Notes under the pieces: model-generated
Seen by the model: only the letters and a program-made list of their open reading frames with translations
Database searches by the model: none
What the model was told of the DNA's origin: nothing
Position numbers and translations under genes: made by a program
Shown: positions 1 to 12,954 of the stretch, in pieces
Layout of the letters: every line of letters begins with the position of its first letter
Numbering within the stretch: the stretch's first letter is position 1
Source of the DNA: a virus
Taxonomy: Duplodnaviria; Caudoviricetes
Virus record (IMG/VR): IMGVR_UViG_3300037465_000359
Coordinates: 1 to 33,660 of that record
Length of the DNA: 33,660 nucleotides
Direction: 5' to 3' (one strand)

Positions 1-3000
1 CTCATCAATAAACAGAGGGAAGCGCAAGAGATTAGGATTGCCCAACTGAAAGAGCAGGCTGAGCAACGTAGTGCAGCAGCAGCAGCAAAGGCGCAGGCTC
101 AACAGGAAGCGGCGATCGCGAAAGAACAGCAAAACCGACAGAAGCTAATTAATCAGATTGAACAGCAAGCGGCAAAGGCTCAAGTCAGGGCGGCAAGCAG
201 TGAGGAAGACAAGCGCTCCGCTCAAATCCTCGCTGAGATGCTTCGCTACAAACAACAATTAGCCGCCATCCAAAATGCTGGGTTTAGCGCTCAGGATGCC
301 CAACGCGCTAAGCAAATGGCTGACGAGTTAAACCGAATCAACCTTGAGGAAATTGAGGCGGGAGCGAAGAAAGCCAAGCTGTCTCTCACGGATTTCTTGT
401 TTGGAGGCTCAGACGCGGCGCGAGATTTGGCTCGCAACCTACAGGTCACAGCTAGTCAATTTGCAGGTGTTGGCGCACAAATTAAGGCGTTTAAATCGAA
501 AGCGTTAGAAGCGTTTGGAGAATTTAAAGCGGCGCGTGGAGATTTATCTGTCTACGCCAATGATGTGCAGGGTGTGACGATTAGGCTTAAGGCGTTAGCG
601 GGTGAGTTAAGAAACCAAGTATCTGTGACCGAACTTACCGCCAATAGTACTAAGGTGGCGCGTTTGGGCTATCGTGACACGGCTGACAACCTCGCGGTTT
701 TGAGTGCAACACAAAAACTCGCGATCACCAGTGGAACCGACTACGAGACTTCGCTGCGAACGACAACCGATATCCTCAAGGCGTTTAAACTACCAGCTAG
801 CGAGGCAGGCAAGGTTACAGAGTTATTGTTCAAAACAGCCAAGCAAGCGGGTGTGCCAGTAGGCGAGCTAGCACCACAATTTGAGGAGTTGGGAGCAACG
901 GCAGCAGCGACTGGACTAAAGTTAGGGGATCTGGCTGGATTTATTGCCCTAACCCAACAGCGGGGGGTTCCGGCTGAGCAATCAATCAGTGCTTTTAACG
1001 CCGTCCTAGACTCAGTCCAGACTGGCAAACTCGCTGACGACGCCGAAAAGTTGGGCATCAATCTAGATCGCAATGCCCTCCAAACCCAAGGATTTGCGGG
1101 TGCGTTACAGCAACTACGGACAAACGGAGTCACAAGCCAAGAGGCGTTAGCTAAACTTTTTGGCAGCACGACCAACGGCGTGATCGTGTTTGAGGCGCTG
1201 AACGGTGGACTCCAATCGGTTAACGTCACGACGGGCGAGCTAGACAAAGGATTTAATAAGCTGGCTGAGAACAATAAAGCCAAGGCTGTGGCGAATGACT
1301 TTAACGATGCGCTCGTTATTGTCGGAGAGGCGATCGCGCCCGTGCAAGCGGCGATCGCGGGTATCACTAAGTTTGCCGCTAATCTGTTCCGATCGCTCCC
1401 AGAGGGGGTGCAGACCCTTATTGGTTCGCTTGTTGGAGTAACTGGCGCGGGTTTAACGCTGGCTGCTTTGGTTACGGGCGCTACTGGTGCTATCCAAACA
1501 CTCCTGACGGCGATCGCTACGTTTACCCCAACCACAGCGGCCGCAACTACAGCGACGAGTGCGGCGGCAGGTGCAACGGCCGCAACAGGAGCTGCCGCTG
1601 CAGCGGCTACGCCAGCAGTGACGGCGTTTGGTGTGGCGTTCTCACCGTTGGCAGCAGTAATAGGCGGGGTCACCTTGGCTGTGGGCGCATTGTCAGCAGC
1701 ACTGTTTGCACTCGATTCAATCAAATTTAACCAGCTCGACGAAGAGTTAACGGCTCTACAAATCAAGGCCCAAGGCTCCGGTAATGACACAGCTCGTCTC
1801 GCGGCACGATTACAAACACTGGGTAAGGAGAGGGATCAAGGTAAGGCAGACGTTCGGAAAGAAGATGAGTATCTGAGGCAAGGTGCGGCACAAGTCAAAT
1901 CGATTGAAGATCAAATTGCCGCGCAAAAGAAACTAAGGGACAGCGCCAGTGATGCGGGACAGAAAGCCAGTATTAACCAGACGATCGCCGCGTCAGAGCT
2001 AGAACTAAAATCCCTCAATAACACGATCGCCGCACTCAAGGCGAAGCGCGAAGTTGTAACCCAGCAACTTTCGCAAGATCAGAAGAAAGCCGATGAGGAA
2101 GCAATTAAATTAGCCAAAGCGAAAGATGACTTGAACCTGAAAGCGGCATCTGACAAGGAAAAGTTACTCAGAGATGCCGCCAATAAACAGGGTGAGCAGA
2201 AGATTGAACAGAAACGCGATCGCGAAGTTGATGCGGTCAAACTTCAGCAAGAGCAGGCGATCACGAGCTTCAGGCAACAGCAAGAGAAAGCTCTAGGCGA
2301 GAAAAAACTTGCATTTGAGAGGCAGATTGCAACGTTTAAAGAAGAACGGGAAAAGGCAATCCAAGAAAAGCAACGCGCTTTTGACGTTGCCCAACAAGCG
2401 GCTAAACAGGCATTCGCTGATGCTCAGCGCAAACAGGATGAGTCTTATCAGTCAGCCAAAGAAAAGCGTCAGGAGGAATTTAATAAGCGCCTTACCGGTG
2501 CCAACGATCTGGTTAAGCGTGAGACAGATTTGGCTACTGCCAAAACGCCTGAAGATCGGGCAAAACTTGAAGCCGAACAGCAGGCGCAGGACAGGATTCG
2601 CGCGGTGATCGCCTCATCAAGTATCAGCACGGGCGCATCGAGTGCGGATATTGTGGCGCGGGCAAAACAAGCGGCGGGTGTTGGGCGGATTAGCAGCGAG
2701 GAAGAGGGTAAACGAGTAGCCTTTGCTGTGGCAGAAATTGAAGCCAAGCTCAAACAGCAAGCAGAAGAAGAAGAACGGTCGCGCGATCGTAAGTATGTGG
2801 AGGAAAAACGGGCGGCAGAGCGAGCTTTCAGCCAAGAGCAGGATGAACAAAAAATCGAGTTTTTACAAACTCAGATCAAACCCCTTGAACGTAAGCTGAA
2901 AGAGGATTTAAACGCGCAGGAACTCACGTTTAAACAAACGGTAATCCAGCCACTAGAATCCAAGCAAGCGGCGGATTTGGCAGCGTTTAGAGCGCAACAG

Positions 3001-3435
3001 GAACAGACTCTTTTAGAGATTCGCCAGAAGTACGAACAAGAACTGGATGCGTTTCGCTTGGCAGATCGCCAGAGAGAAATCGATCTAGACAATGCCGCGC
3101 AACTGGCGCGGTTAGAACGTGAGTCAGCTTTTAAGCAGCAGCAGAGGGATTTAGATCTACAAAACGCTCAGCAGATCGCCGACCTGAGTGTCGCTAGACA
3201 ATTTGCCGCACCGTCGGCAAATATTGTGCCTTTCGTCGCTTCGGGGCGTGGGGCTGGGGCTGCGGGAGTACCGCCAATTCAGTCGGTAACCAATAACCGC
3301 ACAAACAACAATACGCGCACTGCTCCCGTAACAATCCAAAACCTCAACGTTACGGCTCCTGACCCTACTGCGGCAGCGATCGGAATTGCTAGGCAAGCAG
3401 CGCGATCTAATCTAGCTGCTGCGGGTGCTGGATAA
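1..3435 (+). CDS. Tail tape measure protein (TP901-like), 5' part lies at the other end of the window
   Basis: Frame is open from base 1 (LINKQREAQE...). TP901-type core (LAVLSATQKLAITSGTDYETS...ILKAFKLPASEAGKVTELLFKTAKQAG), hydrophobic Ala/Gly/Thr segment and long coiled coil; follows major tail and chaperone genes if the genome is circular. Confidence 0.9.
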   Translation, partial: LINKQREAQEIRIAQLKEQAEQRSAAAAAKAQAQQEAAIAKEQQNRQKLINQIEQQAAKAQVRAASSEEDKRSAQILAEMLRYKQQLAAIQNAGFSAQDAQRAKQMADELNRINLEEIEAGAKKAKLSLTDFLFGGSDAARDLARNLQVTASQFAGVGAQIKAFKSKALEAFGEFKAARGDLSVYANDVQGVTIRLKALAGELRNQVSVTELTANSTKVARLGYRDTADNLAVLSATQKLAITSGTDYETSLRTTTDILKAFKLPASEAGKVTELLFKTAKQAGVPVGELAPQFEELGATAAATGLKLGDLAGFIALTQQRGVPAEQSISAFNAVLDSVQTGKLADDAEKLGINLDRNALQTQGFAGALQQLRTNGVTSQEALAKLFGSTTNGVIVFEALNGGLQSVNVTTGELDKGFNKLAENNKAKAVANDFNDALVIVGEAIAPVQAAIAGITKFAANLFRSLPEGVQTLIGSLVGVTGAGLTLAALVTGATGAIQTLLTAIATFTPTTAAATTATSAAAGATAATGAAAAAATPAVTAFGVAFSPLAAVIGGVTLAVGALSAALFALDSIKFNQLDEELTALQIKAQGSGNDTARLAARLQTLGKERDQGKADVRKEDEYLRQGAAQVKSIEDQIAAQKKLRDSASDAGQKASINQTIAASELELKSLNNTIAALKAKREVVTQQLSQDQKKADEEAIKLAKAKDDLNLKAASDKEKLLRDAANKQGEQKIEQKRDREVDAVKLQQEQAITSFRQQQEKALGEKKLAFERQIATFKEEREKAIQEKQRAFDVAQQAAKQAFADAQRKQDESYQSAKEKRQEEFNKRLTGANDLVKRETDLATAKTPEDRAKLEAEQQAQDRIRAVIASSSISTGASSADIVARAKQAAGVGRISSEEEGKRVAFAVAEIEAKLKQQAEEEERSRDRKYVEEKRAAERAFSQEQDEQKIEFLQTQIKPLERKLKEDLNAQELTFKQTVIQPLESKQAADLAAFRAQQEQTLLEIRQKYEQELDAFRLADRQREIDLDNAAQLARLERESAFKQQQRDLDLQNAQQIADLSVARQFAAPSANIVPFVASGRGAGAAGVPPIQSVTNNRTNNNTRTAPVTIQNLNVTAPDPTAAAIGIARQAARSNLAAAGAG

Positions 3436-3477
3436 CAGTGGCTCAAACGCCAAGGCGATCACGCGGCAATTGATGGT

Positions 3478-3519
3478 AATACTTCTTAGAAATATGTTGA
3501 CAATACTTCTAAGACATAT
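3478..3519. promoter_or_regulatory. Paired imperfect palindromic operators flanking the -35 box
   Basis: AATACTTCTTAGAAATAT (3478-3495) and AATACTTCTAAGACATAT (3502-3519): direct repeats, each with dyad symmetry around TCT(T/A)AGA. Confidence 0.65.
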
Positions 3520-3525
3520 TAGTAT
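3497..3525 (+). promoter_or_regulatory. Sigma70-type promoter of the csx3 cassette
   Basis: TTGACA (3497-3502), 17-bp spacer, TAGTAT (3520-3525); purine-rich RBS region GGAGGAAAAGGAG directly before ATG 3565. Confidence 0.8.
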
Positions 3526-3564
3526 TGTATGCAAGTTAAGCTTAAGTGAACGGAGGAAAAGGAG

Positions 3565-3864
3565 ATGAATCCAATTCAAATAAAAATCACACAGCAGAAT
3601 GATTTCTTCACTCTCGTGGAGATATCTATTGAAGGGGGCGTGTGCACCCCCGATGACCTGAAAAGCCTCAGTATCCCCAGCGTGAAAGGGGATGCTGGAG
3701 TGGTTATCACTGGACGAGCACCTATCTGGCTCGTCGCAAACCTAGTCCACCACTACCACGCAACCGCGTGGGTTGCCACCTTCGACCCACGGGTCGGTGG
3801 CGCGGTAGTGGTAGAAACTCACCAACGTCGTATTGACGTTGGTGACATAATCTACCCAGACTGA
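3565..3864 (+). CDS. csx3: Csx3/Crn3 family CRISPR ring nuclease (cA4-degrading), putative anti-CRISPR
   Basis: 99 aa with the Csx3 signature GVVITGRAPIWLxxxLxHxxH...WVATFDPRxGGAVVVxTH...VGDII; DPR motif and flanking His residues retained; size matches stand-alone Csx3. Confidence 0.9.
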   Translation: MNPIQIKITQQNDFFTLVEISIEGGVCTPDDLKSLSIPSVKGDAGVVITGRAPIWLVANLVHHYHATAWVATFDPRVGGAVVVETHQRRIDVGDIIYPD

Positions 3865-3872
3865 TCTCTCCG

Positions 3873-4055
3873 GTGAAGAGATCGGTCGGTCAACCCCCCA
3901 AACACCGCAAGGGGTTGACCGTTTACATTAAACCGGAAATCTGCGATCGCCTCGGATTGCCTATTGAGGCAACACCCAAAGAGGCGATCGCAGTAATTGA
4001 ACGCCTGATCCTCGCTTTCCAGATTAGCCGCGAGGATCAAAACGACAGCAAGTAA
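3873..4055 (+). CDS. Small basic putative DNA-binding protein (RHH-like), candidate Aca-type autorepressor
   Basis: 60 aa, GQPPK-HRKGLTVYIKPE-helix-helix pattern resembling a ribbon-helix-helix N-terminus; lies between csx3 and the terminator. Confidence 0.5.
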   Translation: MKRSVGQPPKHRKGLTVYIKPEICDRLGLPIEATPKEAIAVIERLILAFQISREDQNDSK

Positions 4056-4061
4056 ATTAAC

Positions 4062-4097
4062 AAAACCCCCAGATCTGTACAGATTTGGGGGTTTTTT
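4062..4097 (+). terminator. Rho-independent terminator closing the csx3 cassette
   Basis: AAAACCCCCAGATCTG-TA-CAGATTTGGGGGTTTTTT hairpin with T run; A run on the other side suggests it is bidirectional. Confidence 0.85.
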
Positions 4098-4184
4098 AGT
4101 CGATTAAGCTAAGGAAAGGAGTAGTAAACCCTTGCTGATTGATTATAGGATAAAATCTTTAACGTCTTAACAAAAAAAGTCACC

Positions 4185-6179
4185 TTGACTGTTATTATTG
4201 CTAGATCTAAGGGGCTTTTAATTAACTCAGTTAACCGAACGGGAGTGTTAGCTGAGTTGACTTTTCGCTCCAATGAATTGGATCAGTCAGGGGTGATTAA
4301 GGTCAGGGCGATCGCGCGGCTATTAGTGCCGTTTGGCTATGAGTCCGACTACACCTATATGTCCAGCCAGACGGTCGCCGCGAACTGGGCGCGGGGCGCG
4401 ATCGCCACTTATCAGATCAGTAACGACGCGGGTACTCTGGTCAACCATCCACTGTCTGGCGGGAAGCTCTTTGTACTCAAAGAGCCAGACAGCCCCACAA
4501 AATCAAATCCAGAGATCACCGTTGAGCTGGGCTGTCAACTGGCGTTTTTTGACTATCTCACCAGCGATCGCGATTTCTCAGGAGTGACCCTGGGCACTCC
4601 AAAAGCTCGCGACGAGATTATCGCGGCATACCTCGACGCCGCTGGCATCACTCACAGTCTAACGTCGATCCCGTACCCGTTTGAAGTGCCCGTACCTAGT
4701 GCTGGCGGATACGTTGAGACTGCCGGCAAGTTGGCTTACGACGCCGGACACTTTTTACGATGTCGCGCTGATGGCACGGTGGTCAACCAAGAGATCGTTT
4801 TTTCGGGTACAGCGATCGCTACGTTTACTGTTGGTACTGACGACGTGAACTTGGAGCCAAGACCAGCAGGGAGTCAAGAATTTCCACCTGGGCAGTTAAT
4901 AGTTTCGGGGATTACCCGCGAGATTGATGCGGTTAACTATCCAGACGTGTCGGTGATGACTGACACTGCCACTGTGAGATATTTTGGGATTGGCACCAGT
5001 GGTAACGTGATCACAAAGGCTGCGCAGTACACCAGTAAAGAGGTGACAACCACAGACAGTGGATGGAATGGTAGCTACGAACAGGTTGAGCAACTCACCA
5101 AAACGGGCTATCTCGTACTGGGTGTACCGCCCATACCTTATCTGTTGCCCACCAACCGCACCAACACGCTAACCTATTACGAGAGCAAACGACGACTTAG
5201 CTCAGTCGTTGTTGAGGGGTTTACCCGCACAGTCACGATCGGAGATCCCCCTGTGGTAGGTAGTGAGTTTAGAACTAGTCTGACGATCACGACCTACACC
5301 TACTCAGACGCGGACATAATTACTGCCGTAGAGACTGTTACCTATGAGTTTATGAATAGCGGGACGGGGGACAATCAAAAGGTCAGCTCAGCGACGCGAT
5401 CACTAGAAGTTTGGGTTAAGGAATCGGCGGGGTTGTGGTCGCACACCAAGCAGTACTACGACAAGATCATCACGGCGGGGCAAGAGCCAACATTAACAGC
5501 GAGCAACTTGCAGGAATGGATTAGCGCGACTAGCCCCGAATCGACCAGTGAGCGATCGCGAAACGCCCAACCGCCAGCCACAACATATCGAGTGGACGCG
5601 GAGTTAAAAGAGCGGGAAATCCGCGCTACAGTTGTGGTTGAGGCATTAGCAGGTAGCGCCTACCAGAAAAAGCCTGAGCCATACAGAGCAGATTATCTGA
5701 CTACCTACGATCAGGCTTACGATTGGGGACTGAGGCAGGCCACAATAATTTTTGGTCGAGCACGGGGCAAGCAAATCCTTGTTGGCTGGAGCACGACTCT
5801 ACTGGCAGATATCAAGCCTTTTGCGCGGATCGATATTGTCAACGGGGCGATTTTAGAGCGTTACGTGGTGGACGCGATCGCGTCCAGTGACGTTTTAGAC
5901 GAGTCTAGTTTGGGACTAACCCTGATCCTGATCAGCACGTCACCGATGGCTACACCTAGCACAGTAATTAAACCTTTGGTGGCGATAATATCAGGTACAG
6001 TCACGGCAAACGCTGGCGCAGCTACGGTCACCGCCGAAGGCGAGGTTGATAGCGGTAATGTCCTCACCGCGATCGCGGGGGCGGCTACGGTATCAGCGGC
6101 AGGATGGACAACGGCAACGGGCGATCTGCTCGCGATCGCGGGCAGATCTAGAGTAAACGCAACAGGGACGGTTAGTTAA
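4185..6179 (+). CDS. Putative tail hub/tip structural protein
   Basis: 664 aa, Thr/Ser/Val-rich beta composition, first large gene after the tape measure; TTG start; stop overlaps next start. Confidence 0.6.
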   Translation: MTVIIARSKGLLINSVNRTGVLAELTFRSNELDQSGVIKVRAIARLLVPFGYESDYTYMSSQTVAANWARGAIATYQISNDAGTLVNHPLSGGKLFVLKEPDSPTKSNPEITVELGCQLAFFDYLTSDRDFSGVTLGTPKARDEIIAAYLDAAGITHSLTSIPYPFEVPVPSAGGYVETAGKLAYDAGHFLRCRADGTVVNQEIVFSGTAIATFTVGTDDVNLEPRPAGSQEFPPGQLIVSGITREIDAVNYPDVSVMTDTATVRYFGIGTSGNVITKAAQYTSKEVTTTDSGWNGSYEQVEQLTKTGYLVLGVPPIPYLLPTNRTNTLTYYESKRRLSSVVVEGFTRTVTIGDPPVVGSEFRTSLTITTYTYSDADIITAVETVTYEFMNSGTGDNQKVSSATRSLEVWVKESAGLWSHTKQYYDKIITAGQEPTLTASNLQEWISATSPESTSERSRNAQPPATTYRVDAELKEREIRATVVVEALAGSAYQKKPEPYRADYLTTYDQAYDWGLRQATIIFGRARGKQILVGWSTTLLADIKPFARIDIVNGAILERYVVDAIASSDVLDESSLGLTLILISTSPMATPSTVIKPLVAIISGTVTANAGAATVTAEGEVDSGNVLTAIAGAATVSAAGWTTATGDLLAIAGRSRVNATGTVS

Positions 6180-11082: not shown

Positions 11083-11402
11083 TGTCACAAGCTAAATCCT
11101 GTCACAAAGCTGTCACAAGCTTATTTTTTACCCCTTTGTGACACATGAAACCTTTACCTAGAGCCTTTTCTATGTCTCTGTCACAGAGTCACAAAGGGAA
11201 ATATATATATATATGTGTGGAAACACTTTTTTCGAAAAAACTTAAAAAACGAAATTGAATTTCGGATTTGAAGTTTTTTTTGAAAAAAGTATTTCTGCCC
11301 TGTAAATATAGGGAAAGCTTTGTGACTCTGTGACAAAGCCCCAAAAAACGAACCAAAGCCATACTGTGTAAGTCTTTTGGCTTCTGTGACAGCTTTGTGA
11401 CA
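11083..11402. other. Putative replication origin with inverted GTCACA/TGTGAC iterons around an AT-rich core
   Basis: About ten GTCACA/TGTGAC copies; two perfect 18-bp inverted pairs (11100-11117 / 11385-11402 and 11179-11196 / 11318-11335); (AT)n and A/T tracts at about 11198-11295; directly downstream of the primase-helicase. Confidence 0.75.
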
Positions 11403-11431
11403 AGATTTAGTATGTCAACACCAACGAAGAG

Positions 11432-12354: not shown

Positions 12355-12954
12355 ATGTTTTTATGCGATCGCCAAATCAAACAAATGGCTGAACAAGGCA
12401 TGATTGCGCCTTTCGAGCCAAGCTTAGTTCGGCAGATCTCAACCGGAGACAACCCCACTACCCGTCACGTCATCAGCTATGGCTTGTCCTCCTATGGGTA
12501 TGATATTCGGCTGTCACCGCGCGACTTCCGCGTATTTCGCCACATCCCCGGCACTGTGGTCGATCCCAAAAACTTCAATCCGCATAACCTAGAAGCAGTT
12601 GCGCTGCATACAGATGTCTACGGTAGCTTCTTTATTTTGCCCGCCCACTCTTACGGTTTGGGTGTGGCGCTAGAACGCTTAGAAGTACCTGAAAACGTTA
12701 CGGTCATTTGTATTGGCAAAAGTACTTACGCACGCACGGGGGTAATTGCCAACCTGACGCCTGCCGAGGCAGGGTGGCGCGGACATTTGACGCTTGAGTT
12801 TTCTAATTCTTCTAGTGCGGACTGCCGCATCTATGCCAATGAGGGTGTTGTGCAATTGCTGTTTTTAGAAGGCGAACCCTGTGCAGTCAGCTACGAAACC
12901 CGTCGTGGTAAGTACCAAGACCAGCAAGAAACCGTCACTTTAGCGAGGGTGTGA
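12355..12954 (+). CDS. dcd: dCTP deaminase, cyanobacterial type
   Basis: ISYGLSSYGYDIRL, GKSTYARxG, TPAEAGWRGHLTLEFSN, IYANEGVVQLLF, SY..R.GKYQDQ. Confidence 0.97.
   Translation: MFLCDRQIKQMAEQGMIAPFEPSLVRQISTGDNPTTRHVISYGLSSYGYDIRLSPRDFRVFRHIPGTVVDPKNFNPHNLEAVALHTDVYGSFFILPAHSYGLGVALERLEVPENVTVICIGKSTYARTGVIANLTPAEAGWRGHLTLEFSNSSSADCRIYANEGVVQLLFLEGEPCAVSYETRRGKYQDQQETVTLARV

Follow-up and report, generated by a model that had tools for sequence, protein, structure and literature searches.

Viruses are known to carry stand-alone cOA-degrading enzymes, namely AcrIII-1, AcrIII-2 (vSAVED), Crn4b, Csx16, Csx20 and the proposed AcrIII-3 (vCsx15) (PMC12409355, PMC12751052, PMC12830947, bioRxiv 10.64898/2026.10.26.761840). 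Among 28,114 cultured phages, one survey found AcrIII-1 in 36, Csx20 in 4 and Csx16 in 2; Crn3 profiles were used in the same survey, and its available text reports no Crn3 (PMC12409355). The csx20 ring-nuclease operon is repressed via an inverted repeat by the RHH protein Aca14, and Acr proteins with built-in DNA-binding domains exist, such as the RHH protein AcrIF25 (PMC13551039). Crn3 cleaves cA4 with Mn2+, its dimers being stacked head to tail on the molecule; cleavage is sigmoidal with enzyme concentration (Hill 1.8), and a cellular Crn3, that of M. mazei (MmCsx3), relieved Csx1 immunity only partly in E. coli (PMC7371418).

The locus studied here resembles the viral ring-nuclease Acrs in the strategy that we infer for it, but its fold differs (Csx3, STAS-like, with a Mn-dependent composite site). 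Its protein is like cellular Crn3/Csx3 in profile, fold and catalytic residues, but the gene is phage-borne, stands without a CRISPR locus and has its own promoter-operator-terminator cassette, in which a likely RHH frame follows.

The DNA analyzed (the window) is a linear IMG/VR virus record of 33,660 bp, 33% complete. Profile scans found tape measure, terminase, primase-helicase, endolysin and neck genes in it, and no integrase in this 33% complete record. The crn3 unit lies between the tape-measure ORF (PF10145, E 2e-20), which stops at 3435, and the next tail gene, which runs from 4185. A first-pass annotation had described the unit as carrying its own near-consensus promoter, ribosome-binding site, intact Csx3 homologue, second gene and terminator, and all of these parts were found where it had placed them (Table 1). 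It had not remarked on the two palindromes, the hairpins at the crn3 stop or the fact that the ORF2 frame is open from 3846.

Table 1. Features of the crn3 cassette (window coordinates)
Feature	Position	Strand	Remark or basis
Operator-like imperfect palindrome 1, 17 bp	3479..3495		Directly 5' of the -35 box
Predicted sigma70-type promoter: TTGACA 3497-3502, 17 nt, TAGTAT 3520-3525	3497..3525	+	10/12 consensus
Operator-like palindrome 2, 17 bp	3503..3519		Occupies the entire 17-bp promoter spacer
Ribosome-binding site GGAGG	3552..3556	+	8 nt 5' of ATG 3565 (sequence)
crn3/csx3 ring nuclease gene, 99 aa	3565..3864	+	Profile, alignment, structure model
-1 frame relative to crn3, open over the crn3 stop	3846..4055	+	R-x-V-G-x-P basic arm, then RHH-like strand and helices
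C_CCA tetramer, weak candidate slip site	3855..3858	+	Relatives have X_XXY_YYZ heptamers here
Hairpin 1, spanning the crn3 stop, ORF2 GTG in loop	3859..3887	+	Folding
ORF2 from GTG, 60 aa, without Shine-Dalgarno; likely RHH/Aca-like repressor	3873..4055	+	Atlas neighbours; orthologous frame in L002
Hairpin 2, perfect 11-bp arms	3887..3921	+	Folding
Intrinsic terminator, hairpin 4062-4095 and T-run to 4097	4062..4097		Folding

A promoter scan of 3000-5000 returned three promoter-like sites versus 1.8 in shuffles, which is weak evidence taken alone. The two palindromes flanking the -35 box are 24 bp apart, and a pattern derived from both has no other occurrence in the window with up to 2 mismatches. 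Palindromes within the promoter spacer were seen in the window and at two other crn3 loci (L154 and L009). The terminator hairpin, which a pattern scan had not listed, folds at -24.8 kcal/mol (z -6.0). It is likely bidirectional, because an A-run precedes the hairpin and a T-run follows it. A promoter-like site on the minus strand (4170-4142, 10/12) is directed at this terminator, which would also keep late transcripts of the tape measure from running on into the tail gene. The window has no Rfam match.

Which host the phage infects can be judged from composition and gene content. The octamer GCGATCGC, which we take to be the cyanobacteria-associated HIP1, occurs 90 times in the window versus 3.4 expected, and a dCTP deaminase gene (12355-12954) shows up to 73-76% DNA identity with cyanobacterial chromosomal genes. 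Both fit the cyanobacterial host supposed in the first-pass annotation, and we consider such a host likely. Comparison of the first 20 kb with 401 cyanobacterial genomes, with two candidates scored per genome, yielded neither a spacer-like match nor a host. Two contigs from one freshwater run cover 2500-5500 and bridge both cassette junctions at a depth of 9-10 with 0 differences. They argue against a chimeric assembly, which is unlikely, though the run is possibly the record's own source and hence not independent. Elsewhere in the window, an AT-rich gap after the primase-helicase gene (11087-11415) holds two nested inverted-repeat pairs (31 nt, 84-90%) and TGTCACA motifs and is origin-like.

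By profile, alignment and modeled structure, the 99-aa product is a member of the Crn3/Csx3 ring nuclease family, and an intact one, as had been claimed. It scores 102.5 bits against PF09620 (cut-off 21) and 93.5 bits against TIGR02579 (cut-off 55.4), and it aligns with Archaeoglobus fulgidus Csx3 (AfCsx3; AF1864, PDB 3WZG/3WZI/6YUD/6VJG) over 83 residues (E 5e-18). The AF2 model (pLDDT 96) superimposes on AfCsx3 chains with Foldseek TM 0.83-0.89 and rmsd 1.2-2.1, at 40-44% identity in the structural alignment. AfCsx3 residues H57, H60, D69, R71 and H80 are essential or conserved (PMC7371418); all five are present in the window protein, as H62, H65, D74, R76 and H86, so that both catalytic faces are kept, the one with H62, H65 and H86 and the one with D74 and R76. 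G45, R46 and I49 of AfCsx3 are also kept, and S44 is replaced by Thr. The catalytic H/H/D/R set is kept in 112 of 115 scored Crn3 relatives. Identity with AcrIII-1/Crn2 (DUF1874) was rejected: the sole Pfam match is Cas_csx3, and the Csx3 fold accounts for the whole chain. The BFVD viral structures gave no match to the window Crn3 at E<=0.001.

Could the gene belong to a phage-borne CRISPR locus? Two profile scans (Pfam and TIGRFAM-type, 45 and 23 window ORFs) found no further cas family, Cas10 is absent from the 33% complete record, and none of the 20 largest of 42 direct-repeat families in the window is CRISPR-like. The earlier statement that the window has no other cas gene or array thus holds, and we rejected a phage-borne CRISPR locus. 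Thirteen further csx3-bearing IMG/VR records were found, 11 loci by alignment scan and 2 by motif scan; one of them, L012, nearly duplicates L006 but has a broken frame. Six records from two relaxed motif scans proved on inspection to be chance matches. The viral loci were recovered by these alignment and motif scans; a single query sequence, whether Crn3 or the tail protein, matched nothing in viral contigs, and tblastn against 50,697 GenBank phage records gave no match to the window Crn3. No cas Pfam family occurs among 122 neighbouring ORFs of ten viral csx3 loci (L002-L011), and Cas10 is absent from all ten viral crn3 records searched, the window included, five of which are at least 90% complete. 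Finding crn3 again in further phages that lack Cas10 speaks for a role in counter-defence. Chromosomal csx3 loci served as a control: of 121 obtained, 51 were full-length, and 30 of these were chosen at random; 23 of the 30 have a cas neighbour, as scored with NCBIfam rather than the Pfam used for the viral loci. The remaining 7 have none among their nearest ORFs, and hence the orphan status of crn3 is not phage-specific. These seven are L027, L042, L049, L060, L075, L079 and L083, and L079 adjoins a serine recombinase.

The surroundings of crn3 vary among its carriers. A Tad2-like anti-defence gene lies 4 kb from crn3 in L008, and barstar is near crn3 in L002. In the metagenome contig L154 crn3 adjoins an integrase, and in L015 (5828-6887), a phage-like Pyramidobacter record filed as a plasmid, a stand-alone crn3, annotated as such but apparently never commented on, directly follows a phage repressor pair; in these two, crn3 sits in early regions of temperate elements. 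Two other plasmid csx3 matches adjoin CRISPR-associated genes.

The first-pass annotation had proposed that the phage captured the off-switch of its host. The closest relatives of the window Crn3 are, however, other phage-type Crn3s at 58-60% identity, whereas cyanobacterial chromosomal Csx3 (found in 47 of 401 genomes) reaches only 38-49%, which argues against the phage having recently taken the gene from its host. In a FastTree phylogeny of this short domain, the window protein is sister to the L002/L003/L154 clade with support of 0.74-0.81, the wider group having 0.90-0.95; phage copies are scattered over several positions of the unrooted tree. A profile search with 1,502 matches, 120 of them listed, contained about 45 proteins among those listed that are 70-91% identical to L002 Crn3 and, judged by their place in the tree, presumably of viral origin. 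No prophage copy close to the window Crn3 was found in the 401 cyanobacterial genomes. One copy 100% identical to L002 was present among 71 genomes, in a prophage of genome G444, and none in 90 further genomes; another 173 genomes held only 49-61% matches within long frames (308-379 codons).

No close relative of the phage was found with which to compare the insertion site. At four prophage loci (L302-L305), distant relatives with one more gene at the site and tail genes 24-34% identical, the position after the tape measure was empty in one and occupied by other cargo in three. Names read from the translations were a HigBA-like pair, LysR and a response regulator. This suggests that the site is likely a moron hotspot.

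We turn to the second gene. ORF2 lies in the -1 frame relative to crn3, which stays open for 64 codons past the crn3 stop. Of 221 distinct csx3 matches surveyed, 180 end soon after the domain, and in 61 of these the -1 frame is open for at least 35 codons; most such frames are ordinary next genes starting at the overlap. A group of seven loci, chosen by eye (the window, L002, L003, L004, L006, L009 and L154), has a -1 peptide of 47-69 residues with a basic G-R/Q-P-type arm. The register past the crn3 end is common to the window, L002, L003 and L154, and RSVGQP of the window and RPVGRP of a relative stand in identical register, gapless from the crn3 end. The L002 and L003 peptides match the PHROG 2639 Arc-like repressor (E 4.5e-4 and 0.004, respectively) and, weakly and below cut-off, Pfam RHH/Arc (E 0.014-0.12). 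Among Atlas neighbours of the window ORF2 peptide are RHH-named clusters at 0.90-0.93. Searches of ORF2 against Pfam, PHROG and PADLOC gave no match, a word-based search gave no homologue, and BLASTP gave no alignment to the L002 peptide. The ORF2 monomer model (pLDDT 61) has two helices, and a structure search on this low-confidence model gave a best Z of 3.2. The cassette layout is Aca-like, with a small last gene and inverted repeats over the promoter. ORF2 is thus predicted, from its link by register and a short motif to the relatives' peptides and from its Atlas neighbours, likely to encode an RHH (Aca-like) repressor of the cassette.

The csx20-aca14 operon is the nearest precedent: it likewise has a ring-nuclease gene followed by an RHH regulator and an inverted repeat in the promoter. 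We liken the two by layout and not by Aca14 sequence. The window differs in having Crn3 instead of Csx20 and a regulator frame that runs over the nuclease stop in -1; among its relatives that frame has no start of its own. The word "frameshift" is absent from the available main text of the csx20-aca14 paper, and csx3/crn3 is absent from one supplement, whose incomplete text also lacks csx20 (PMC13551039).

How would such a start-less frame be translated? An X_XXY_YYZ heptamer lies within the last five crn3 codons in 5 of the 7 group members (CCCTTTG twice, CCCTTTA, CCCAAAA and CCCAAAG) versus 3 of the 173 other copies. The enrichment (Fisher p 8e-7, or 2e-4 when counted as 3 of 5 lineages) is indicative, the group having been chosen after inspection. 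The L002 -1 frame contains no ATG, GTG or TTG, and no start of eight kinds before codon 30, i.e., beyond the start of the Arc-like match. Between L002 and L003, differences in this frame fall 9/5/16 by codon position (p 0.019), with 12 synonymous and 12 non-synonymous codons. Five loci with a heptamer, one of them lacking any start before the Arc-like match, indicate a Crn3-repressor fusion made by frameshifting, and we conclude that in the relatives the repressor is probably produced as a -1 extension of Crn3. The heptamer with a downstream hairpin is also the arrangement of IS3-family programmed -1 frameshifts, X_XXZ_ZZN and including C_CCA_AAG, the most efficient frameshift motif in E. coli (PMC4066793). 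The proposed Crn3-RHH fusion would resemble the built-in regulator of AcrIF25-type Acrs.

Several observations temper this reading. Stems begin 6-7 nt after the heptamer in L002, L003, L154 and L006 and are modest (z -2.4 to -0.7); the hairpin spacing in L004 fits a frameshift signal poorly, and L009 has neither a heptamer nor a canonical start in the -1 frame. Long start-less -1 frames also occur in 6 of the 173 other copies. The protein ends speak for the reading: all 49 sister-clade tips, three of them loci possibly duplicating protein entries, end in IP[L/F]x, which is what C_CCT_TTN would require, although the conservation of IPL may be structural rather than due to recoding. Pro-Lys is kept in 33 of 38 L004-clade tips and all 8 L006-clade tips, versus 11 of 270 in the wider set. 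No in-frame Crn3-RHH fusion was present among the 28 longer representatives listed or the nine profile-search proteins of more than 112 aa (proteins of up to 254 aa being covered), and among 165 proteins the G-R/Q-P arm motif was seen only in ORF2 itself and one ATPase fusion.

With its junction IYPD, the window departs from the rest of its clade. Where its relatives and IS3 elements have heptamers, its only candidate slip site is a C_CCA tetramer, and C_CCA frameshifting in E. coli is 1.8-3.6x background (PMC4066793). An inner stem begins 4 nt after it (criterion 4-10 nt), and the two hairpins at the crn3 stop together fold at -35.2 kcal/mol (z -5.9). The window's -1 frame also has its own GTG at codon 5, without a Shine-Dalgarno, in the loop of hairpin 1. 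Hence re-initiation is the likelier route here, since the heptamer is missing and a GTG is present: we lean, at somewhat better than even, toward ORF2 being translated by re-initiation at GTG 3873 once hairpin 1 has been opened by the ribosome that terminates there. We regard a weak frameshift at C_CCA, with a fusion of about 163 aa as its product, as possible but on the unlikely side, and we think it quite unlikely that ORF2 is hardly made at all. The frameshift-linked repressor is therefore well supported in the relatives and doubtful in the window. The loop of hairpin 1 that holds the GTG (3871-3875) is complementary over 5 bases to that of hairpin 2 (3903-3907); a kissing-loop contact between them would mask the start codon or stimulate frameshifting.

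What would the cassette do? With fair confidence, on sequence and model, we favor its being an acr-aca-type operon directed against type III CRISPR that encodes an intact Crn3. A pulse of Crn3 would come from the strong promoter, and this enzyme is predicted to break down cA4 and thereby weaken the host effectors that cA4 activates; the likely RHH product of the second frame would then close the promoter at the two palindromes. Early timing, cA4 as the substrate in vivo, and repression are the inferred elements of this proposal. The sigmoidal dependence of Crn3 cleavage on enzyme concentration is in keeping with a need first for a strong promoter and then for its repression.

The genome that carries the L002 prophage bears on this proposal. 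In the order to which this lysogen belongs, 18 of 71 genomes have a Cas10 above the cut-off, but draft genome G444 itself has no Cas10 or RAMP match, which counts against a simple anti-type III story. It does carry a SMODS nucleotidyltransferase, which would suit an anti-CBASS role: the enzyme may be active with another cyclic-nucleotide defence as its real target, such as cyclic-oligoadenylate CBASS, or it may mainly sequester the signal. Slow multiple turnover by AfCrn3 (PMC7371418) and the broad specificity of Csx15, another filament-forming ring nuclease (bioRxiv 10.64898/2026.10.26.761840), point the same way. However, characterized Crn3 is described as cA4-specific (PMC7371418, PMC8284326), and catalysis is argued for by catalytic residues that are all kept in the window and nearly always in its relatives. 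A phage may, moreover, lysogenize a strain without the defence that it counters elsewhere. We judge this explanation improbable, and we hold equally improbable that the cassette is a lysogeny moron, with expression from the prophage set low so as to limit self-targeting by type III systems or the toxicity of background cA4. The latter would suit a unit with its own promoter and terminator within a late tail region, at a site that bears host-type cargo in distant relatives, and L002, L154 and L015 are temperate elements. Against it stand the lack of an integrase in this incomplete record, the acr-aca layout of near-consensus promoter and operators, and the place of crn3 among early genes in L015 and L008; biochemically, such a moron would be anti-type III all the same.

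Least probable, in our estimate, is that the protein is a Mn-dependent RNA 3'-deadenylase or weakly active cargo of no benefit, with ORF2 a decayed remnant. RNA deadenylation was the earliest activity reported for AfCsx3 (PMC8284326), and the window junction has diverged from that of its sister clade. AfCsx3 nevertheless binds cA4 about 100-fold tighter than poly(A) RNA (PMC7371418); promoter, operators, ribosome-binding site, both frames and terminator are all intact, and the family recurs in many phages with its catalytic residues conserved.

A phage Crn3 cassette is absent from the literature that we found, yet the concept is known, viral ring nucleases and csx20-aca14 having been published. 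No published phage-encoded Crn3 was found in the full-text literature, a coverage that mostly excludes subscription journals, nor was any Acr regulator that is added to a fraction of chains by frameshifting. If our reading is correct, the Crn3 fold joins the viral ring nucleases. Crn3 and type III systems are common in freshwater and mat cyanobacteria, and the cassette would be the first candidate cA4-directed anti-CRISPR for them. It offers a direct way to ask if a cellular off-switch with cooperative action and slow turnover can become an anti-CRISPR through expression level alone. Tentatively, and at less than even, we propose that cyanophages carry a widespread, undescribed anti-type III Crn3 family whose repressor is a programmed -1 frameshift Crn3-RHH fusion. 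Such a fusion, if real, would be a new mode of acr operon regulation, an anti-CRISPR metering itself by recoding. Because Crn3 dimers stack on cA4, it could tie the acr promoter to the host alarm signal or to the Crn3 level. The window member would then either still make the fusion at a low rate or have turned it into a coupled second gene. Since the relatives' -1 frame has no start codon, gene callers would overlook such operons, and a -1-frame repressor could serve as a new marker for anti-defence operons missed in this way.

Other arrangements of viral crn3 were also seen. In L020 (118-1133) and L022 (1-538), phage crn3 is followed by a separate P-loop ATPase, a second phage architecture; the L020 ATPase matches the Csx3-AAA partner domain. 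In L006 (5401-6282), crn3 is in frame with an upstream ORF of 186 aa and no known family, either as a fusion or with an internal ATG start. In L008 (1486-6294), a 272-kb phage, crn3 has small genes around it that carry the same recurrent promoter-like motif.
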